DNA from: an uncultured Armatimonadia bacterium | GTDB taxonomy: Bacteria > Armatimonadota > Zipacnadia > CAVVLO01 | Assembly: GCA_963749155.1 (NCBI GenBank) | Contig: CAVVLO010000005.1 | Location: forward strand, 160,001 to 224,000 | Length of the DNA stretch: 64,000 nt | Direction: 5' to 3' | In this document: piece after piece, positions 34,209-43,789 of the stretch | Layout of the letters: each line of letters begins with the position of its first letter | How positions within the stretch are numbered: position 1 is the stretch's first letter | The notes under the pieces: model-generated | The model's input: only the letters and a program-made list of their open reading frames with translations | Database searches by the model: none | Told to the model about the DNA's origin: nothing | Program-made: the position numbers and the translations under genes

Positions 34209-36431
34209 TTAGCGATTCCTGCTTCCGCCGGACCTGCCGCCGCCACTGCCACCACGTCGGTCGCCGCCGCCACTACCGCCGCGCCGGTCACCGCCCCGGT
34301 CACTACCGCGGTCACTGCGTTCGCGCTCGGGGCGCTCGACATAGCCTTCCGGCTTGGGCGTGAGCTCTTTCATCGAAAGACGCACCCGGCCCAGGTCGTC
34401 GACTTCTATGATCTTGACCTCTACCTCATCGCCGATATGCAGCCTGTCTTCGACTTTCTCGACGCGTTCCCAGGAGATGTGCGAGACGTGCAGCAATCCA
34501 TCCTTGCCTGGAGCTATCTCGACGAAGGCCCCGTAAGGCTCGATGCGCACGACTTTACCCATCGTAACGAGGCCAGGCTCGGGATCGTGGGTCATCGCGT
34601 CGATGATGGCGATGGCCTTGTCCGCGTCTTCCTTGTTGAGAGCGGCGACGTAGACGGTGCCATCGTCTTCGATGTCGATGGTAGTATTGGTCTCTTCGAT
34701 GATCTTCTTGATGGTCTTGCCGCCTGGGCCAATGACCAGACCGATCTTCTCGCGGTCAATATGCAGGCTGAAGATGCGCGGCGCGAACGGCGAAAGATCG
34801 GCGCGCGGCTCGGAAATGACGTCGCGGATCTTGCCAATGATGTGCAGGCGGCCCTTGCGAGCGCGCTCGAACACCTCGGCCAGGAGCTGCTCGGGCAGGC
34901 CCTTGATTTTCATGTCGAGATGCATTGCCGTGACGCCTTTCTCGGTGCCGGCAATTTTGCAGTCCATGTCGCCGAGGAAATCCTCGAGCGCCATAATGTC
35001 AGTCATCAGGACGTACCGGTCCTCGTCAGTAACGAGGCCCATCGCGACCCCTGCGACAATGGCGGTGATCGGCACGCCCGCGTCCATCAAGGCCAGCGTC
35101 GAGCCGCATACAGCGCCCATCGAAGTGGAGCCGTTCGACTCTAATACTTCAGACACCAGACGGACCGTATAGGGGAAGGCTTCCTTGGTTGGAAGAACGG
35201 GCATCAGGGCTTTCTCGGCCAGGGAACCGTGACCGATTTCGCGCCTGCGCGGGCCCATCATCCGGCCGGTCTCGCCAGCGGAGAAGGGAGGGAAGTTGTA
35301 GTGATGCATATAGGTCTTGTCAGGCGCTTCGAGCATCGTATCGACGACCTGCGCCGAGCCGATGGTCGCTAGCGTCGCGACCGTCAGCACCTGGGTCTCG
35401 CCGCGCTGGAAAAGTCCGGCGCCATGCACGCGCGGCAGGAAGCCGACTTTGCACATAATGTCGCGCACTTCTTCAATGCCGCGGCCATCAGCGCGCACGC
35501 CGTGTTCCATAATAGACTTGCGAAGCTCGACTTTAATGACATCGTCGATAGCCTCTGAGACCTCGAAGCCCCGCTCGGCGTATTCGTCGCCCAGTTCGGT
35601 TTTGATACGCTTGTCAAGCGCGCTGAGGGCTGCGCTGCGCGCTTCCTTCGTCTTTATGAACAGTGCGGTCTTCAGGTCTTCGGTGTATTTCTGACCGATG
35701 AGAGTCTTAAGGGTCTCGTCTTTCTCGGGTTCGGTGAAAACAACCTTGGGCCGGGCGACCTTCGCGGCGATAGCTTCGATGGCGTCAAGCAGCGGGGGCA
35801 GTTGCTCCCAGGCAAACTTGATGGCGCCAAGTACAATCGGCTCGGGCAACTGCTCGGCTTCGATCTCGATGGTCAGCAGGCCGTCACGATGGCCCGCCAC
35901 TATCATGTGGAGCTCGCTGGCTTCCTGCTGAGCCGCGTCGGGGAAGGCGATATACTCGCCTTCGACATATGCGATGGGAAGAGCAGCTACCGCGGCATAT
36001 ATGGGTGCCTGCGAGGCCATCAAGGCCGCACTGGCGCCGATGATACCGAGGGCTGGCAGCGAGGTGTCATTGTCTACGGAAAGGGGCGAAACCACTACCT
36101 GCATATCTCTGCGGAACTTCTTGGGGAAGAGGGGGCGAAGCGGCCTGTCGATAAGCCTGGCCATCAAAGTGGCGGCCTCGCTTGGGCGTCCCTCGCGCTT
36201 GATGAAGCCGCCGGGGAGCTTGCCCGCTGCATACATCCTCTCTTCGACATCGACGGTGAAGGGCAGGAAATCGGTGTCGCGGTCTTCGTCTGAGACGCAA
36301 GCGGTGCAGAGCACTACGCTGTCTCCGTGACGAACGACCATTGAGCCGCCCGCCTGTTTGGCCAGTTCGCCAGTCTCAATTATGAGGGGCTTGCCTGCCA
36401 GTGTTAGTTCTACTTTCTCCATTCTACTCAA
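34209..36431 (-). CDS. pnp: Polyribonucleotide nucleotidyltransferase (PNPase)
   Basis: Two RNase PH domains (RLIDRPLRPLF; RREIGHG; ESNGSTSM), KH (IGPGGKTI), S1, and an RGG-rich tail. Confidence 0.98.
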   Translation of the reverse strand: MSRMEKVELTLAGKPLIIETGELAKQAGGSMVVRHGDSVVLCTACVSDEDRDTDFLPFTVDVEERMYAAGKLPGGFIKREGRPSEAATLMARLIDRPLRPLFPKKFRRDMQVVVSPLSVDNDTSLPALGIIGASAALMASQAPIYAAVAALPIAYVEGEYIAFPDAAQQEASELHMIVAGHRDGLLTIEIEAEQLPEPIVLGAIKFAWEQLPPLLDAIEAIAAKVARPKVVFTEPEKDETLKTLIGQKYTEDLKTALFIKTKEARSAALSALDKRIKTELGDEYAERGFEVSEAIDDVIKVELRKSIMEHGVRADGRGIEEVRDIMCKVGFLPRVHGAGLFQRGETQVLTVATLATIGSAQVVDTMLEAPDKTYMHHYNFPPFSAGETGRMMGPRRREIGHGSLAEKALMPVLPTKEAFPYTVRLVSEVLESNGSTSMGAVCGSTLALMDAGVPITAIVAGVAMGLVTDEDRYVLMTDIMALEDFLGDMDCKIAGTEKGVTAMHLDMKIKGLPEQLLAEVFERARKGRLHIIGKIRDVISEPRADLSPFAPRIFSLHIDREKIGLVIGPGGKTIKKIIEETNTTIDIEDDGTVYVAALNKEDADKAIAIIDAMTHDPEPGLVTMGKVVRIEPYGAFVEIAPGKDGLLHVSHISWERVEKVEDRLHIGDEVEVKIIEVDDLGRVRLSMKELTPKPEGYVERPERERSDRGSDRGGDRRGGSGGGDRRGGSGGGRSGGSRNR

Positions 36432-36489
36432 CGCTTCCTCCTGGGGCTCTCTTGGCCCCTCCTTAAGCCGCCAGCAACAACTAACAGCA

Positions 36490-36580
36490 CCTCTCCCCGG
36501 CGGCGGGGGAAGAGGCCCTGGGTTCCTGTGCTAACCGAGAGGCTTCCTTGTCGGATAACTACTCTCGGAACATACCAGGG
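36490..36580 (-). promoter_or_regulatory. Structured pnp leader (long stem-loop plus second hairpin)
   Basis: CCCTGG/CCAGGG and CCGAGAG/CTCTCGG nested complementarity at 36516-36580; CCTCTCCCC/GGGGAAGAGG hairpin at 36490-36515. Confidence 0.5.
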
Positions 36581-36587
36581 AACAGAA

Positions 36588-36614
36588 CTCCCGGCCCGCT
36601 TTGCGGACCGGGAG
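36588..36614 (-). terminator. Hairpin after rpsO
   Basis: CTCCCGG...CCGGGAG stem immediately after the rpsO stop, followed by TTCTGTT on the minus strand. Confidence 0.55.
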
Positions 36615-36625
36615 CAGGACAGGTT

Positions 36626-36892
36626 TTAGCGACGCAGACCGAGGCGCTGGATAAGATCGCGATAACGCTTCGAGTCCGTGCGCTCCAGATAACGTAGCAT
36701 GCGGCGGCGCTCGCCAACCATAACAAGCAGACCGCGGCGGGAGTGGTAGTCCTTCTTGTGCAGCTTGAGGTGCTCTGTAAGCTGGCTGATACGCGTGGTA
36801 AGCAGAGCGACCTGCACTTCGGGTGAGCCGGTATCGTTATCAGCAAGACGATATTGCTTGATGACCTCGGCTTTCTCTTCAACTGTAAGCAC
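36626..36892 (-). CDS. rpsO: 30S ribosomal protein S15
   Basis: [13 protein letters not shown]...[12 protein letters not shown]...LGLRR; GTG start after AGGAGGA. Confidence 0.98.
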
Positions 36893-36909
36893 TGTTTTCT
36901 CCTCCTGTC

Positions 36910-36975
36910 TCGGTAAACCGTGCTCGCGCCAGGCGCTGAGCCACAGTAAACCGTCTGCGCGTAGGATAGCACAAG
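36910..36975 (-). promoter_or_regulatory. rpsO promoter (extended -10) and candidate S15 autoregulatory leader
   Basis: Minus strand TGTGCTATCCT, then CGGT-TTACTGTG-GCTC-AGCGCCTGGCGC-GAGC-ACGGT-TTACCG stem-loop just before the RBS. Confidence 0.55.
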
Positions 36976-37071
36976 GCGCCTTCGGGGTAAAGTCAGCCCG
37001 TCCTTCGGCAGGCGGCCTTCTAACTAACCTCTCGCGGTGCTAAAATCCTGTGTGGAGGAGGCGAGCTGGCA

Positions 37072-37971
37072 GTGAAGACTATTGCGAGCATCTCCCTTGG
37101 CTCAAGCACGCGTGATTTTGAGGTCGAGGCCGAGTTTGGCGGGCAGCAGTTCAGGTTGCTCAGGCTTGGCACCGATGGCAGTCTTGGGGAATATAGACGT
37201 CTCCTCGAGGAATGGGACGAGAAAGCTGATGTGCTGGCGCTTGGAGGCATCGACCTTTACGTGCGCCAGGGGCAGCGGGTTTATACTTTTCGGGATGCGG
37301 CGCGACTTGCCAAAGGGCTGAAAAAGCCTGTCGTAGATGGCTCGGGCCTCAAGGCTACCCTCGAGCGCAACGCGGTGCGCTCACTGGCCGAGCAGGGAGT
37401 GCTCAAGTTTGAGGGGCTGCCAGTGTTGCTGGTTGCCGGCATCGACCGGTTTGGCCTGGCCGAGGAATTGCGCGACCGCCACTGCGACCTGGTACTGGGC
37501 GATATGATGTTCGCTCTTGGAGTGCCAGTGGCCTTCACCCGCTGGTGGCAGTTCCTTGTGGCAGGCAAGTTATTACTTCCGATAATCGTGCGTTTGCCGT
37601 TCAAGTGGATATATCCCACAGGCGAAAAGCAGGAAACGACCAAACCGCGCTTTGGCAAGTGGTACAAGTGGGCCGAGTTGATCTGTGGCGACTTCCATTT
37701 TATTCGCAAGTATCTGCCCGAGAGGCTCGAGGGCAAGTATATACTTACCAATACAATCACTTCAGCGGATCGGCAGTTGCTGAAGGAGCGCGGGCTCAAG
37801 GCGCTTATAACCACAACCCCAAGTTTTGGAGGACGCAGCTCGGGCACCAATGTCCTCGAAGGGGTTGTGTTGTTGCTGTCAGGGGCGACCCAGTACGACC
37901 CAGCCAGGTATGAAGCAGTGCTGGATGAATTGAAACTGCAGCCAGAGGTTAGCTGGCTGCAGGAAGGATAA
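37072..37971 (+). CDS. Conserved protein of unknown function (family recalled as often labelled 'quinate 5-dehydrogenase'), partner of the downstream reductase-like gene
   Basis: SISLGSSTRD, RLGTDG, GGIDLY, VVDGSGLKATLE, DRFG, GDMMFALG, YPTG, GDFHFI, TTP..GGRSSGTN; GTG start after GGAGGAGG. Confidence 0.7.
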   Translation: MKTIASISLGSSTRDFEVEAEFGGQQFRLLRLGTDGSLGEYRRLLEEWDEKADVLALGGIDLYVRQGQRVYTFRDAARLAKGLKKPVVDGSGLKATLERNAVRSLAEQGVLKFEGLPVLLVAGIDRFGLAEELRDRHCDLVLGDMMFALGVPVAFTRWWQFLVAGKLLLPIIVRLPFKWIYPTGEKQETTKPRFGKWYKWAELICGDFHFIRKYLPERLEGKYILTNTITSADRQLLKERGLKALITTTPSFGGRSSGTNVLEGVVLLLSGATQYDPARYEAVLDELKLQPEVSWLQEG

Positions 37972-37980
37972 TCCAGGTCT

Positions 37981-39054
37981 ATGGAGCGCTTTGCCTTCAT
38001 TATTCACCCGCTCAAGCCCAAGCAGGCGGCTCGGAAGTATCCTGTCGCCAGGCTACTGCCTGATTTCCTCCTTGAAAAGCTGTTGCACAAGCAGCACTCC
38101 AGGATCGCCTCCCATATAACAGGGGTCAAATCGGCGACAGGGGTTGAGGCAGAGGGCTGGTTCGTAGGTTGCCCGCTTACCCCGAAGGCGATAATGACGA
38201 TGCCGGAGGAGTTCACGGTCGGCAAGATAATAGAATCCGCCCGGATCGCCCAGGAGCATGGCGCAGGTATCGTAGGCCTGGGCGCCTATACCTCTATTGC
38301 TGGCGATGCGGGAATTACAGTTGCCAAAAACGTAGATATCGCGGTCACCACCGGCAACAGCTATACGGTTGCCACTGCTGTCGAAGGGTTGCTTCAGGCA
38401 GCAGAACTAATGCGCCACAAGCCTTCGGAGTCGCTTTGCACCATCATCGGCGCGACTGGCTCAGTTGGGCGCACCTGTGCGATTTTGCTCGCGGATTCTG
38501 TGGCTGGACTGCGACTGGTAGGCAGAGACAGCGCCCGGACCGAACGCGTGGCGGCAGAAGTGCGCGAGGCCTGCCCTGATTGCCCTGTCGAGATCACTTC
38601 TGACATCGAGGCCTCACTCAAAGACGTGCCTCTTGTTGTGACCGTTACCAGCGCAATCGAGTCGGTCATCCAGCCTGCCTGGCTGACGAAGGGCGCTGTC
38701 GTATGCGATGTCGCCCGGCCAAGGGATGTCTCCGTCGCCGTTGCGAAGGAGCGCCAGGATGTGCTCGTCATCGAGGGAGGCGTGGTCAGTGTGCCAGGCC
38801 AGGTCGAGTTCAGGATGGACTTCGGCTTCCCCCCCTGCACTGCCTATGCCTGTATGTCTGAAACAATGATTTTGGCTCTCGAAGGGCGCTACGAAAGCTT
38901 CTCTCTGGGGCGCGATATAGAGCCTGACAAGGTGAAAGAGATAGCCGGGCTGGCTGCCAAACACGGTTTCAAGCTGGCGGGTTTCCGCAGCTTTGAGCGC
39001 GCCGTGACACCCGAGCTGATCGAGTCCGTTCAACGCGCGGCCGGATTGTTATAG
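37981..39054 (+). CDS. Acyl-ACP/acyl-thioester reductase-like oxidoreductase (cyanobacterial AAR / PigE N-terminal-like)
   Basis: FAFIIHP start, GLGAYTS, TTGNSYT, Rossmann IIGATGSVG, DVARPRDV, AYACMSETMILALEG with a Cys at the AAR catalytic position. Confidence 0.72.
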   Translation: MERFAFIIHPLKPKQAARKYPVARLLPDFLLEKLLHKQHSRIASHITGVKSATGVEAEGWFVGCPLTPKAIMTMPEEFTVGKIIESARIAQEHGAGIVGLGAYTSIAGDAGITVAKNVDIAVTTGNSYTVATAVEGLLQAAELMRHKPSESLCTIIGATGSVGRTCAILLADSVAGLRLVGRDSARTERVAAEVREACPDCPVEITSDIEASLKDVPLVVTVTSAIESVIQPAWLTKGAVVCDVARPRDVSVAVAKERQDVLVIEGGVVSVPGQVEFRMDFGFPPCTAYACMSETMILALEGRYESFSLGRDIEPDKVKEIAGLAAKHGFKLAGFRSFERAVTPELIESVQRAAGLL

Positions 39055-39062
39055 GAGCTGGG

Positions 39063-40272
39063 ATGGACAGCCACAAGCTCGCGGAAAGCTGGCTCTCAGA
39101 CCTGGTTGCCCTGCCCAGTGTAACGGGGGAGGAAGAAGCCGCCCTGGCCTGGGTCGAAGCCAAACTGATCGAACTTGGTTATGCTCCTCAACGCCTTCCG
39201 CTGGGGGCCGATACCCTGGCCCATGAGGCTTATCGCCCCTTTCGAGCCGCTTTCAGACTGGCAAAGGGCCAATCTGGTAGTGAAGCTGCCGGGCGAAGGC
39301 GCTCCGCTGCTCCTTAACACCCATCTCGATACCGTCCCGGCCGCAGGCTGGGAGGAGGCCTTCACCCCCCGGATTGTGGGAGACAGGCTTATCGGACGCG
39401 GAGCCTCTGATGCCAAAGGCCAGGTGGTCACTCTCCTCCTGGTCGCAGCGGCGCTGAAAGAGCGTGGCCTTGCCCTCGAGCGCCCTCTGGAGTTCCATTT
39501 CGTCATCGAAGAAGAGGTCGGCGGGAATGGGGCACTTGCCCTTGCGCTGGCCTCGAAGGGCGCCTCCGGTTGCGTGGTGCTCGAGCCAACAGGTTTGAAT
39601 ATCCACCCGTCCAACCGCGGCGCGCTCTGGTTCAAGTACAGGTTGGAAGGTAAGAGTGTGCATATGGGGCGCATCCAGGAGGGCGTAAACGCCATCGAGA
39701 AAGCCTGGCTGCTGGCCGAAAGCCTGCGGGCTTATTGGGCAGAGCTACTCGAAGCAAGTCGAGGCTATCCTGGTTATGAGCACTATGAGGTGCCAGTGCA
39801 AGTGAATCTTGGGACAATCCATGGCGGTGACTGGCCCTCGATGGTGGCGGGCTGGTGCGAGCTGGAAGGCGGAGTTGGCTTCCTGCCGAGCAAGACTCTT
39901 GCCGAGGTCGAAGCCGACCTCAGAGCGCTTATCGCCAGCCATCCGGACGACTGGCTGCGAGACCATACTACTGTGACCTTCGACCGGCTGCGCAACGAGG
40001 CTTTCGCTTTCCCTCTCGATCATCCTCTGGCGCTGGGCCTGCACCAAGCCGCCCGCGCTGCTGGAGGCAAAGCCGAGATCACTGGCTGGAACGTCTCTTG
40101 TGATGCGCGCCTTTATGCGAAAGTGGCTGAAGTGCCGACCGTCGTTTTCGGTGCTGGCGACGTGGCTGAAGCCCATTCGGCAGGGGAGAGCATCGCGCTC
40201 CCCGAATTACTGCTCGCTGCCGAGGCGCTTACCGAGTTTGTTTTGGACTGGTGTGGTGTAAGGAGTATCTGA
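39063..40272 (+). CDS. M20/ArgE/DapE-family metallo-deacylase; frameshift at ~39241
   Basis: PSVTGEE, NTHLDTV, GRGASDAKG, IEEEVGG, EPT, AHSAGE. ORFs 39063..39317 and 39175..40272 join if one T is removed from 'ccctttcgag'. Confidence 0.85.
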
Positions 40273-40274
40273 AA

Positions 40275-41606
40275 ATGAAGCAAGGTATTGAGATCCTTAC
40301 CGAGTTGCCCGGCCCGCGCTGCCGCGCGGCGCTGGAGGAAGCCAGGCTGTATGAGCCTGCTTCGATGAGCGAACAGGCGCCTGTGGTCTGGGATCAGGCT
40401 GAAGGCTGCTATGTGAAGGATCTCGATGGCAACGTTTTTCTTGATTTTACCTCGGGAGTGCTGGTTGCCAATGTCGGCCATTCACGTCCCGAGATTGTAG
40501 AAGCCATCCGCGAGCAGGCAGGCAAGGTTATAAACTGTTATGACTTCCTCTCGGAGCCTCGGCTTGCCCTCTCAAAGCGGCTTGTAGAACTCGCTCCAGC
40601 CCCTCTGGACAGAGCTTTCATCCTCACCACAGGCGCCGAGACTACCGAAGCGGCCATCAAGCTGGCGCGCAAGGCCACCGGCAAGTATGAGATTATCGCT
40701 TTCTGGGGCGCCTTCCATGGCAGGACGATGGGGGCTCTCTCTTTAGGCGGCAAGCGCTCCGGAGCAGGGGCCTCGGGCTTTGGGCCTTTCGTGCCAGGCA
40801 TCCATCATGCACCCTTCCCTTATTGTTATCGCTGCCCCTTCGGGAAGAGCCGGCCTGGTTGCGCCCTGGAATGCCTGGCTTTCCTCGAGCCTTTCTACGA
40901 TATGGTCACAGAGCACAAGGTGGCCGCGGTCATCGTCGAGACCTACCAGGGGGGCGCGGGCAGCATAATCGCGCCGAAAGAATGGTGGCAGGGGCTGCAG
41001 GCCTGGTGCCGCAGCAAGGATATCCTGCTGATAATTGACGAGGTGCAGGCCTCCTTTGGGCGCACGGGCAAATGGTTCGCCTTCGAGCATTACGGCCTGG
41101 AGCCTGACCTCGTATGCCTGGGCAAGGGGCTCTCGAGCAGCCTGCCTGTCTCGGCGCTGCTTGGGCCGTCCAGCCTGATGGATTGCCTGGGGCCTGGCAC
41201 GCTTTCCAGCACGCATGGGGGCAATCCGCTTGGCGATGCCGCGGCGCTGGCCAATATCGATGTTATCGAAAAAGAAAACCTCTGCGATCGCGCCGCCAGG
41301 CTTGGCGACTTGGCTCTGGGGCGGATGAAAAGCTGGCAGGAGCGCTTCTCCATCGTGGGAGAGGCGCGCGGTATGGGCCTTGCGATGGCGCTTGAACTGG
41401 TGGAGGACAAGGTCACGAAGCAGCCTGCGCCCGCTCTCGTGAAGCGGCTGATAGATTTATGTTACCGGAAAGGCTTGCTGTTGATTGCGCCCATCGGCAC
41501 CTATGGCAACTGCCTCAGGCTCTCGCCTCCTCTTGTGATCACCGAAGCAGAGCTGGCTCTGGGCCTGGACCTTATCGAAGCTGCACTTGAGGAGCTGACT
41601 TCCTGA
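40275..41606 (+). CDS. Class III PLP aminotransferase (GabT/ArgD-like)
   Basis: DLDGNVFLDF, NVGH, TGAETTEAAIKLAR, AFHGRT, IDEVQASFGRTG, PLP lysine LGKG, STHGGNP. Confidence 0.92.
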   Translation: MKQGIEILTELPGPRCRAALEEARLYEPASMSEQAPVVWDQAEGCYVKDLDGNVFLDFTSGVLVANVGHSRPEIVEAIREQAGKVINCYDFLSEPRLALSKRLVELAPAPLDRAFILTTGAETTEAAIKLARKATGKYEIIAFWGAFHGRTMGALSLGGKRSGAGASGFGPFVPGIHHAPFPYCYRCPFGKSRPGCALECLAFLEPFYDMVTEHKVAAVIVETYQGGAGSIIAPKEWWQGLQAWCRSKDILLIIDEVQASFGRTGKWFAFEHYGLEPDLVCLGKGLSSSLPVSALLGPSSLMDCLGPGTLSSTHGGNPLGDAAALANIDVIEKENLCDRAARLGDLALGRMKSWQERFSIVGEARGMGLAMALELVEDKVTKQPAPALVKRLIDLCYRKGLLLIAPIGTYGNCLRLSPPLVITEAELALGLDLIEAALEELTS

Positions 41607-42433
41607 GTACCTCTCGCAACAAGCGGTGGTCGAAAGAGGAGATCCTGACGCGGCTGCGCGAGTTGCACGAGCAGGGCGTGAAGCTGGTGCCTTCCGAAAT
41701 GCAGCGCAGGGAGCCAAAGCTTTTCTATATCGCCCGGTCGAGGTCTTATTTTGGCACCTGGAAAGAGGCCGTGCGCGCGGCAGGCTATTCGTATCGACGT
41801 ATAAAGAAAAGCGCCAGCAGGTGGAACCCCGAGCGCGTGCGTCGAGAACTTGCCAGACATTTTGCGGCGGGGGAGGATCTGCTGTCGCCTGTTTTCTGCA
41901 AGCAGAACGCCAAACTCGTCGAGGTGGCAAGAGGCAGGGGCGCCTTCGGGGGATGGCGTAAAGCGCTGGAGGCCGCCGGGATTGATCCGGAGGAAGTGCG
42001 CAAGCGGCATTTCCTCTCCAAGGAACGGATTATCGAGGAGCTGCAGGCGCTTGCGGCAAGCGGATCAGTACCAGATTCCAAAACTTTGCGCGAGACTCGG
42101 CCCGATTTGTATCGAGCAGCGCGCCGGCCGGAGACCTTCGGCAGTTTCCAGTCGGCGCTGGTGGCTGCTGGACTGGCAGAGGAAGAGCCGAAACAGCGCA
42201 TCCGCTGGAGCCGCGAACGCGTAAAGCTGGGGGTTCAGGTGCTCGCCAGACGCGGAGTTGGCCTGAGCCAGCAAGAGGCTCTGGCTGTCTCGCCAGCGCT
42301 GGTAGCGGCGGCCAAGAGCAAGCGCCATTTCGGCAGTTGGGGCAAAGCGGTCGAAGCTGCCGGTTTTGATTATGCCAAACACAGCCAGCGCAGGCGAAAG
42401 CCTGCCAAAGGCAGACGAGGTGAGGCGCGATGA
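41603..42433 (+). CDS. Tandem-repeat basic protein (homing-endonuclease-associated-repeat-like, FGxWxxAxxAAG x4); apparent CTG start
   Basis: Four units ending YFGTWKEAVRAAG, AFGGWRKALEAAG, TFGSFQSALVAAG and HFGSWGKAVEAAG, each beginning (W/L)S/NxExI/V. The frame is open from CTG 41603, overlapping the upstream TGA, with GAGGAG 8 nt upstream. Confidence 0.65.
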   Translation: MSTSRNKRWSKEEILTRLRELHEQGVKLVPSEMQRREPKLFYIARSRSYFGTWKEAVRAAGYSYRRIKKSASRWNPERVRRELARHFAAGEDLLSPVFCKQNAKLVEVARGRGAFGGWRKALEAAGIDPEEVRKRHFLSKERIIEELQALAASGSVPDSKTLRETRPDLYRAARRPETFGSFQSALVAAGLAEEEPKQRIRWSRERVKLGVQVLARRGVGLSQQEALAVSPALVAAAKSKRHFGSWGKAVEAAGFDYAKHSQRRRKPAKGRRGEAR

Positions 42434-43389
42434 GGCTAGCTCTTGTAGAAGGCCCTGGCGGAAGGGAGTTCGCGCTACGACTTGGCAAGGAGTATTACGC
42501 TGTGTCAGCCCTGGCAAAAACGCTTGGGCGCGAGGACGAGGTCAGGCTACTGACTGACTGGCAGGCAGTCTGCTCACTTGACGGGCCGGCTCACAGTTTC
42601 CTGCAAGAGTTGCGCCAGACCTTTTCCACCAGGCCGGAGGCCTTGCCGGCGCCACTTGAACCCGGCAGTTTCGAGTTTCTGCCTGTGGTCGGGCCCGACA
42701 GGCAGCTCTTTCTGCTTGCGGGCAATTACCTCGAACATGTCAAAGAAGGCGAATCCATCCTCGCGCTCAAAGCGGCCGAGCAGCAGAAGTTCTACAGGCC
42801 ACGGGTCTTCTCGAAACACCCCGGTGTCTGTGGGATTGGTCACGGGACGCCTATCCAGATTCCAGTTAACGCTCGGCAGCCAGACTACGAAGGTGAGTTG
42901 CTTGTGGTTATCGGGCGAGAAGCAAGGCATGTTAGCCCTGATGAGGCTATGCAGCAGGTGTATGGTTACAGTATAATCAATGATGTTTCGGAGCGGGCTT
43001 TTCGCTCTGGCGCCGAAGAGAGCGAGCACCCCTTCGACAAGTTTTTCGACTGGCTTAACGGCAAATGGGCGGATGGTTACGCCGCCAGCGGCCCGGACCT
43101 GGTCAGCGCCGAGGAAGTGCCTGACCCATATGCCCTCGAACTGTCGACTGAAATTGACGGCGAGGTGCGCCAGAAGGCCAGCACGGGCGATATGATTTTC
43201 GACGTGGCTCGGGTGGTCAGCTTCATCTCGACCATCTGCACGCTAAGGCCAGGCGATGCCATCGCCACCGGGACGCCGAGTGGGGTTGGCAGCGCCTCGG
43301 GACGTTTCCTTAAGCCCGGTCAAACAGTCACAGTCCGCATCTCGGATGTGGGCGAGTTAAGCAACCCGGTTCAATCCGCGACACAGTGA
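42430..43389 (+). CDS. Fumarylacetoacetate hydrolase family protein
   Basis: AGNYLEH, FSK, DYEGELLVVIG, NDVSER, GKWADG, LRPGDAIATGTPSGVG. Confidence 0.92.
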   Translation: MRLALVEGPGGREFALRLGKEYYAVSALAKTLGREDEVRLLTDWQAVCSLDGPAHSFLQELRQTFSTRPEALPAPLEPGSFEFLPVVGPDRQLFLLAGNYLEHVKEGESILALKAAEQQKFYRPRVFSKHPGVCGIGHGTPIQIPVNARQPDYEGELLVVIGREARHVSPDEAMQQVYGYSIINDVSERAFRSGAEESEHPFDKFFDWLNGKWADGYAASGPDLVSAEEVPDPYALELSTEIDGEVRQKASTGDMIFDVARVVSFISTICTLRPGDAIATGTPSGVGSASGRFLKPGQTVTVRISDVGELSNPVQSATQ

Positions 43390-43393
43390 GGGG

Positions 43394-43789
43394 ATGGGTG
43401 TGAGCGTTAAAATTCTGGTTGTAGATGATGAGGTACCTGTAGCAACAGTTATCCAGGCGAACCTGGAACTCGAAGGCTACGAGGTCACAACCGCTTACGA
43501 TGGCAACCAGGGCCTTCTAAGGGCCAGAGAGCTCAAGCCTGACCTTATTCTGCTTGATGTGATGATGCCCGAGAAAGACGGCTGGACGGTATTGCAGGAG
43601 TTGCGCGGCGATCCGGAGTTGTACAAAACCCCGGTCATAATGCTCACCGCCCTTTCCCAGGAATCGGACATCTCGCGCGGCTGGGAGTCCGGTGTAGATT
43701 GTTACCTAACCAAGCCTTTTGATCCGCTTGAGATGATCGAGATTTGCAAACGCATCCTCGAGGCGGGCGATCTCGATCTCGATATGTAA
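43394..43789 (+). CDS. Single-domain response regulator
   Basis: ILVVDDE, LLDVMMPEKDG, MLTA, YLTKPF. Confidence 0.9.
   Translation: MGVSVKILVVDDEVPVATVIQANLELEGYEVTTAYDGNQGLLRARELKPDLILLDVMMPEKDGWTVLQELRGDPELYKTPVIMLTALSQESDISRGWESGVDCYLTKPFDPLEMIEICKRILEAGDLDLDM

Follow-up and report, generated by a model that had tools for sequence, protein, structure and literature searches.

Within the genome of an uncultured Armatimonadia bacterium, a window of 64,000 nucleotides (nt) was analyzed (GenBank assembly GCA_963749155.1, contig CAVVLO010000005.1, positions 160,001 to 224,000 of the forward strand; the window is this whole stretch, and positions are counted from its first letter). Two adjacent open reading frames (ORFs) in the window, ORF1 and ORF2, probably encode the two subunits of a reductase of the acyl-acyl carrier protein (acyl-ACP) reductase (AAR) type, a reading that we hold with moderate confidence. 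That ORF1 is a genuine partner of ORF2 is strongly supported by gene fusions, adjacency and co-occurrence across genomes. The source genome is 4.17 Mb in 7 contigs and is 100% complete by marker genes. The two genes are as follows.

37072..37971, forward strand: ORF1, partner subunit, public name "quinate 5-dehydrogenase", 299 amino acids (aa), GTG start
37981..39054, forward strand: ORF2, AAR/PigE-type NAD(P)H-dependent acyl-thioester reductase subunit (assigned by homology), 357 aa

Full-length ORF1 and ORF2 modules are held in one protein by 67 of the 69 ORF1 homologues of 525 to 2000 aa, with ORF1 ahead of ORF2 in 65 and ORF2 ahead of ORF1 in two. The other two of these long homologues carry a CPBP intramembrane protease domain (P0243) and an amino-acid permease (P0244). 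Gene neighborhoods were compared at the 80 best-scoring ORF1 loci from species-representative genomes. Clostridia-type Firmicutes and Negativicutes make up most of them, and the rest come from Armatimonadota, a Sumerlaeota, and others. ORF2 lies directly downstream of ORF1 in 48 of these loci and within 3 kb in 3 more, and a divergent or degenerate ORF2-like gene comes next in 14. Otherwise the next gene is greA (4 loci), an aminotransferase (1 locus), or another gene (5 loci), and the DNA was too short in the remaining 5. Among 121 sampled Armatimonadota genomes, ORF1 is present in 119 (106 of the 107 high-quality ones), nearly always in single copy, and ORF2 in 115 (E ≤ 1.6e-52). By hand comparison of coordinates, the two are adjacent with a gap below 500 nt in about 61 of the 121 genomes and 0.8 to 5 kb apart in 8. 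The pair belongs to the single-copy core of Armatimonadota, where it is nearly universal, and it also occurs widely in anaerobic Firmicutes, Chloroflexota, and Deinococcota. ORF1-like clusters were found in a protein atlas for Bacillota, Chloroflexota, and Deinococcota, and among 14 control genomes, the AAR model matched only in S. elongatus, T. thermophilus, and D. radiodurans. Of the 33 Deinococcus-Thermus genomes surveyed in PMC9425974, all have the ORF1 family, which is recorded there as a conserved unknown. The AlphaFold2 model of a fused ORF1-ORF2 homologue (predicted template modeling score [pTM] of 0.70 over 707 aa) lends weak support to a defined packing of the two halves.

In the Firmicutes loci (L001 to L080), the pair is embedded in a conserved run of housekeeping genes in the order birA-coaX-dusB-(~320-aa gene)-(~180-aa gene)-ORF1-ORF2-greA-lysS. 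The ~320-aa and ~180-aa genes match no Pfam family, the latter having a faint helix-turn-helix match, and many of the Firmicutes contigs with the pair stop just past lysS. The degenerate ORF2-like gene after ORF1 was seen in Syntrophomonadaceae, Peptococcia, and others (a group of L016, L027, L042, L046, L050, L056, L060, L061, L069, and L077, a second of L007, L014, L020, and L065, and a third of L034 and L074); the catalytic cysteine is replaced by Asp in L034 and by Trp in L074. An intact aminotransferase-ORF2 fusion was seen at another site of the genome. The plasmid collection held no ORF1 match, and the fused query returned matches to its ORF2 half only, with 0 records covering 80% of it. 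An ORF2-like stretch (~31% identity) is present in 127 Ralstonia megaplasmid records; for the matches listed, the gene table of the collection has no entry at that place.

In ORF2, a full-length homologue of both AAR and the reductase domain of PigE, the motifs FAFIIHP, TTGNSYT, GATGSVG, and AYACMSETMILALE are all present. Its best NCBIfam match was the PigE model NF053554 (8.7e-66; 222.8 bits, cut-off 850) over model positions 39 to 355 of 837, the reductase half only. The AAR model TIGR04058 matched at 1.6e-24 (86.8 bits, equivalog cut-off 449.7), so that ORF2, judged by sequence, is an AAR homologue and not an equivalog. Searches of Protein Data Bank (PDB) sequences with HMMER gave PigE (4PPM) at 2.7e-35 and the Synechococcus elongatus AAR (SeAAR; 6JZQ) at 6.5e-20. 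Residues 42 to 331 of ORF2 align with AAR 41 to 335, and by hand counting of alignment columns, C291 of ORF2 corresponds to C294 of SeAAR, described as the acyl-accepting catalytic residue in the available parts of PMC9594044 and PMC10829540. The GxGxxG motif is GATGSVG at residues 157 to 163. Both C291 and GxGxxG are intact in 21 of 23 aligned ORF2 homologues, the exceptions being two Peptococcia metagenome-assembled genomes. The aldehyde-deformylating oxygenase family (PF11266) had 0 matches in the whole 4.17-Mb genome, while the positive control, Synechococcus elongatus, was matched. ORF2 homologues carry the Joint Genome Institute (JGI) label "predicted amino acid dehydrogenase".

ORF1 had 0 matches in Pfam and 0 in NCBIfam, and its profile gave only chance matches to PDB sequences (E ≥ 0.4). 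Across a 26-sequence alignment of the family, identity per column is 64%. Many polar residues are invariant, and so are the motifs SLGSSxRD, DGSGLK, GxDRFG, TNT, and TTTP; GxDRFG stands at the position of the Rossmann GxGxxG, and an invariant cysteine is absent. The AlphaFold2 model of ORF1 (predicted local distance difference test score 89.9, pTM 0.87) was used in an exhaustive VIA-align search, in which the top structural match was AAR 6jzq_A (Z 13.9, root mean square deviation 4.6 Å over 247 residues), followed by a carmabin-pathway domain (Z 12.1), glutamate dehydrogenase (10.3), and shikimate dehydrogenases (9.5 and 8.9). Foldseek against the PDB returned generic two-domain alpha/beta matches, such as periplasmic binding proteins and malic enzyme, with TM scores of 0.3 to 0.4. 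When the profiles of the two families were compared with each other, no similarity emerged between ORF1 and ORF2 (probability 0.1%), so the resemblance between the two is structural only. In the literature searched, which lacked most subscription journals, no account of either the ORF1 family or an AAR made of two subunits was found, and the family is not mentioned in the available parts of PMC9594044 and PMC10829540.

The public label, by which ORF1, ORF2, or both would be a quinate/shikimate dehydrogenase, is close to refuted by these comparisons, and we give it hardly any weight. It can draw on the NCBI names, on the Pfam Shikimate_DH match of ORF2 (PF01488; 29.2 bits, cut-off 24.3), and on the shikimate dehydrogenases among the structural matches of ORF1. 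The Pfam match, however, covers a generic Rossmann domain only (residues 150 to 256), and the best of the shikimate-dehydrogenase NCBIfam models, PRK12549, reached 15.7 bits against a cut-off of 235. ORF1 has no family match, and AAR outranks shikimate dehydrogenase by structure for ORF1 and by sequence for ORF2. An earlier note on this DNA, made from the letters and a list of reading frames, had taken ORF1 for an unrecognized accessory subunit and not a dehydrogenase of this kind. Both parts of that claim held up, the first through the fusions, adjacency, and co-occurrence and the second through the absence of a family match and the structure search, in which AAR ranks over the shikimate dehydrogenases. 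Its view of ORF2 as AAR/PigE-like was borne out by the two NCBIfam models, the PDB sequences, the catalytic cysteine, and GxGxxG; the motifs it had listed (FAFIIHP, TTGNSYT, a Rossmann motif, and the fourth given above) were all confirmed, and the lack of an aldehyde-deformylating oxygenase, which it had noted for the window, extends to the whole genome.

In the proposed mechanism, ORF2 would be the catalytic subunit, and by homology with AAR, PigE, and TamH, it would take an activated fatty acyl group onto Cys291 and release the resulting thioester as a free fatty aldehyde with NAD(P)H. The acyl donor would probably be acyl-ACP; acyl-CoA or acyl-phosphate made by PlsX are also possible. ORF1, with a predicted AAR-like two-domain fold that lacks the catalytic cysteine and the dinucleotide motif, would be a non-reductase partner in a fixed complex with ORF2, for which the fusions in both orders are the evidence. 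Its role would most likely be to deliver the substrate or to hand off the aldehyde at the membrane, which is the weakest step of the proposal. The fate of the aldehyde would differ by lineage, with an alcohol or wax ester made by the fused proteobacterial-type form and an amine made in lineages that have a fused or neighboring aminotransferase.

The pair resembles AAR (6JZQ/6JZU/6JZY) in the cysteine position and GxGxxG of ORF2 and in the predicted fold of ORF1, which is closest to AAR. AAR, however, is a single polypeptide paired with aldehyde-deformylating oxygenase, for which no PF11266 match was found in the window's genome, and it has no second subunit, whereas here there is an AAR-fold partner, non-homologous by sequence, that looks obligatory. 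The N-terminal reductase domain of PigE, of the prodigiosin MAP pathway, is the top sequence match of ORF2. PigE is one protein of 837 to 861 aa with a C-terminal class III transaminase; in the window, the transaminase, which is not PigE-like, is a separate gene two downstream of ORF2 with an M20 gene between them. No partner of the ORF1 type is known for PigE. TamH, KecF/PP_2782, and the thermophilic transaminase-AAR fusions belong to the same reductase family as ORF2 and share the aldehyde-to-amine logic; compared with the TamH type, the window holds the two activities in separate genes. The fused ORF1-ORF2 proteins, publicly named "dehydrogenase" or "serine carboxypeptidase", consist of the same two modules, which are split into two genes in the window. 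Most ORF1 motifs are not conserved in the fused clade of proteobacterial type, and the neighbors are alcohol dehydrogenase and wax synthase, not aminotransferase.

The context of the fused form was taken from 80 metagenome loci of this clade (L111 to L190), 61 of them with at least 1.5 kb of upstream sequence. A divergently oriented Fe-alcohol dehydrogenase gene lies upstream of the fused gene in 48 of the 80, the 40 nearest at 47 to 193 nt. A WS/DGAT wax-ester synthase is near it in 9 (51 to 4111 nt away), and a FabH-like gene comes next after it in 4; relatives of the window's aminotransferase and M20 genes were found in none of the 80. The neighbors suggest an unrecognized fatty alcohol or wax-ester route. 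Of the 121 Armatimonadota genomes, 11 have an ORF2-like domain as the C-terminal half of a fusion of about 530 to 660 aa with PlsY, the acyl-phosphate:glycerol-3-phosphate acyltransferase. The fusion is the sole PlsY found in those genomes, ORF1 is elsewhere in the genome, and the one member checked by Pfam keeps the cysteine and GxGxxG. Carriers are L086 (5233-7068), G001, G005, G017, G031, G035, G048, G061, G074, G086, and G098. Apparent PlsY fusions in frames of 547 to 715 aa in G043, G082, G083, and G106 were rejected; the long frames of G083 and G043 were inspected and look like open frames in G+C-rich DNA, and no ORF2 match was found in L108 to L110. Genes for lipid-binding proteins occur within the pair at two loci (SCP2-like in L094 and SRPBCC in L041). 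By analogy with these contexts, the substrate is probably a fatty acyl group and the product an aldehyde, and the lipid role suggested in the earlier note agrees with the PlsY fusions and with the alcohol dehydrogenase and wax synthase found as neighbors.

It is improbable, in our estimation, that the substrate of the pair is instead an acyl thioester or acyl phosphate that is small, polar, and derived from an amino acid, giving an amino aldehyde that is then transaminated. Such a substrate is hinted at by two finds of an amino-acid permease, one as a fusion with ORF1 (P0244) and one as a gene inside the pair (L094, 4312-8118); an M20 deacylase and an omega-aminotransferase downstream in the window and the JGI label of ORF2 homologues would also fit. 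Against this, the genome has a canonical argC-argJ-argB-argD operon and a plsY-gpsA pair, and ORF1-ORF2 is therefore no replacement for those enzymes. The PlsY fusions and the WS/DGAT, Fe-alcohol dehydrogenase, FabH, SCP2, and SRPBCC contexts point to hydrophobic substrates, and the characterized relatives AAR, TamH, and PigE all use C8 to C18 acyl chains according to the available parts of PMC9594044 and PMC10829540. ORF1 and ORF2 were also considered and rejected as a PlsX replacement, since PlsX is present in 115 of the 121 genomes, this one included, and as a GpsA analogue, given the plsY-gpsA pair.

Several observations weigh against a two-subunit AAR-type reductase. Its enzyme activity and physical complex are predictions from homology and genomic context, and the predicted relatedness of ORF1 to ORF2 depends on one model and a Z-score. 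ORF2 scores far under both the AAR and the PigE equivalog cut-offs, and in several Firmicutes, ORF1 stands beside an ORF2-like gene without the catalytic cysteine or GxGxxG. The fused clade is divergent, with about 26 to 36% identity to ORF1 and most ORF1 motifs not conserved, and the permease fused to ORF1 and inserted between ORF1 and ORF2 points to another kind of substrate. The aminotransferase and M20 genes are not conserved neighbors of the pair. ORF1 is kept without ORF2 in four genomes of one Armatimonadota family (G008, G024, G038, and G051; 96 to 98% complete), in which no ORF2, PlsX, or PlsY was found; the joint loss, being one evolutionary event, is weak evidence for a lipid substrate. 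From these genomes and the invariant polar residues, ORF1 may have an activity of its own that lies outside a two-subunit enzyme. ORF1 is also better conserved than ORF2. In the family without ORF2, ORF1 adjoins a GT4 glycosyltransferase gene (L096 and L097).

Downstream of ORF2, the window continues with two further genes, one of them interrupted at a homopolymer.

39063..40272, forward strand: M20 (ArgE/DapE family) deacylase gene, with a 1-base frameshift in the assembly, assigned from Pfam and NCBIfam matches
39236..39242, forward strand: homopolymer run CCCCTTT, site of the M20 frameshift, located from the sequence and contig comparison
40275..41606, forward strand: class III (omega-type) aminotransferase (PF00202), 443 aa from its ATG, with an alternative GTG start at 40251

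ORF1, ORF2, the M20 gene, and the aminotransferase gene lie head to tail on the forward strand with gaps of 9, 8, and 2 nt, the last between the M20 stop and the aminotransferase ATG (40275). The M20 gene is read in two frames, with the N-terminus at 39063-39317 and the remainder at 39175-40272, one frame over. The latter part (365 aa) matched Peptidase_M20 (PF01546) at 2.8e-28 and M20_dimer (PF07687) at 1.5e-14, and, truncated as it is, PRK06837 at 2.8e-63 (214.2 bits, cut-off 376). The frameshift was checked against contigs of four public runs over 38800-39700, where run X3 had no contigs. Both contigs that bridge the site (one each from runs X1 and X2; 95 to 99% alike) have one letter fewer at 39240, which restores a single M20 frame; the break would then be an error of the assembly or be limited to this strain. 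A homopolymer assembly error is plausible, and a strain-specific pseudogene may also account for it.

The aminotransferase matched PF00202 (Aminotran_3) at 2.6e-102 (343 bits, cut-off 30.5), and its best NCBIfam model was PRK05769 (412.9 bits, cut-off 552). An assignment as ArgD was rejected, with 289.7 bits against a cut-off of 410 and the canonical argD (492.9 bits) elsewhere in the genome, in the argC-argJ-argB-argD operon on contig 2. In view of that operon, ORF1 and ORF2 as analogues of ArgB and ArgC, with the M20 enzyme and the aminotransferase as ArgE and ArgD, were likewise rejected. Assignment of the latter two as DapE and DapC, beside dapA, dapB, and asd, is unlikely; searches of the genome for DapD, DapH, and Ddh found none of them, and a candidate DapL2-type LL-diaminopimelate aminotransferase is on contig 2 (689294-690442; 524 bits, cut-off 593).

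Taken together, the four genes could form a split PigE/TamH-type route in which an acyl thioester is reduced to an aldehyde and then aminated to a primary fatty amine for a membrane lipid or metabolite, with the M20 enzyme removing or handling an N-acyl group. We regard this as possible but unlikely. The common strand and short gaps are in its favor, as is the logic of a reductase with a class III transaminase, which is proven for TamH, where acyl-ACP from TamA is needed (available part of PMC9594044), and proposed for PigE (available part of PMC8341465). Related couplings also recur elsewhere. At L078, ORF1 is directly followed by an 886-aa aminotransferase-ORF2 fusion; L041 has the order ORF1-aminotransferase-SRPBCC-ORF2, and L021 has ORF1-aminotransferase. 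Among five genomes in which ORF1 lacks a normal ORF2 neighbor, four (G121 to G124) have a frame of ~905 to 910 aa with an ORF2-like match elsewhere in the genome, and in two of these, L083 and L084, Pfam identified aminotransferase-ORF2 fusions of about 890 to 900 aa. One of the aminotransferase-linked loci is from "Ca. Oleimmundimicrobium" and the others are from Firmicutes (L021, L041, L078, L083, and L084). For expressed transaminase-AAR fusions of Thermaerobacter and Thermincola, the available part of PMC10829540 reports that the transaminase domains act on aliphatic aldehydes in vitro. Since such fusions and insertions recur in Firmicutes, an amine end-product is, by analogy, possible in this genome.

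The adjacency seen in the window is, however, unique among the genomes examined. No aminotransferase or M20 gene was near the ORF1-ORF2 pair at 6 same-class pair loci, and across the 80 ORF1 loci, an aminotransferase was found in 4 and an M20 gene in 0. The window aminotransferase has matches in 30 of 31 same-class genomes, its own (G000) included (E ≤ 1e-60, best identities mostly 43 to 54%), and neither ORF1 nor ORF2 was near the orthologue at the 8 same-class loci that were fetched. In 2 of these 8, an M20 orthologue (47 to 49% identity) and the aminotransferase orthologue are ~1.8 kb apart, a weaker M20-like gene was seen in a third, and Gfo/Idh/MocA oxidoreductases (3 loci) and alanine racemase (2 loci) are further neighbors. 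From these counts, the M20 and aminotransferase genes look like a module of their own that was placed behind ORF2 in this lineage. The window aminotransferase is, moreover, only about 28 to 34% identical to the aminotransferases linked or fused to ORF2, and the M20 gene is frameshifted in the assembly. The earlier note had given the four-gene layout and the motifs, which agree with the coordinates found here, and had overlooked the frameshift. Its inclusion of the aminotransferase in the pathway is largely contradicted by these neighborhoods, as it had named a non-conserved aminotransferase neighbor as an outcome that would speak against it; of its fatty-amine proposal, what stands is that an amine is possible, in view of the recurring Firmicutes fusions. 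Under the two-subunit reading, the downstream module may turn the aldehyde into a primary amine in this genome, as a lineage-specific coupling.

The flanks of the four genes hold other functions. On the opposite strand 5' of ORF1 are rpsO and pnp, then dapB, asd, and dapA, all named from translations alone. In the region 41663-43389, the gene directly 3' of the aminotransferase encodes three HNH_repeat (PF18780) units in a protein of 256 aa and overlaps the start of a fumarylacetoacetase-family gene (42430-43389) by 4 nt. A promoter and terminator scan over 36400-43600 gave counts not above those of shuffled sequence.

A more speculative extension, which we think rather unlikely, is that the pair is the missing fatty-aldehyde source for core membrane lipids in Terrabacteria-type phyla (Armatimonadota, Deinococcota, Chloroflexota, and deep Firmicutes). 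With the same low likelihood, it would use acyl-phosphate made by PlsX and not acyl-ACP, with ORF1 as the acyl-phosphate-handling or membrane-docking subunit. If so, this would account for the ORF2-PlsY fusion in 11 genomes, for the loss of ORF2 together with PlsX and PlsY in one family, and for the stronger conservation of ORF1 relative to ORF2. A candidate product is the long-chain alkylamine found in phosphoglycolipids of Deinococcus-Thermus, the biosynthesis of which was still described as unknown in 2022 (PMC9636437).

AAR, PigE, TamH, KecF, and the transaminase-AAR fusions have all been published, and a two-subunit AAR was not found in the literature searched. The AAR-type reductases described so far are either stand-alone proteins of cyanobacterial alkane synthesis or domains of proteins in pigment pathways. 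In the window, this chemistry would be carried out by a two-protein enzyme, the second subunit of which is an uncharacterized and misnamed family. If the pair makes fatty aldehydes, a large family of "conserved hypothetical" proteins would gain a function, and thousands of "quinate/shikimate dehydrogenase" labels would be corrected. The pair would also be a candidate origin of aldehyde-derived bacterial lipids (alkylamines, alcohols, and wax esters) and, for the biocatalysis of fatty aldehydes, alcohols, or amines, a new scaffold made of two parts.

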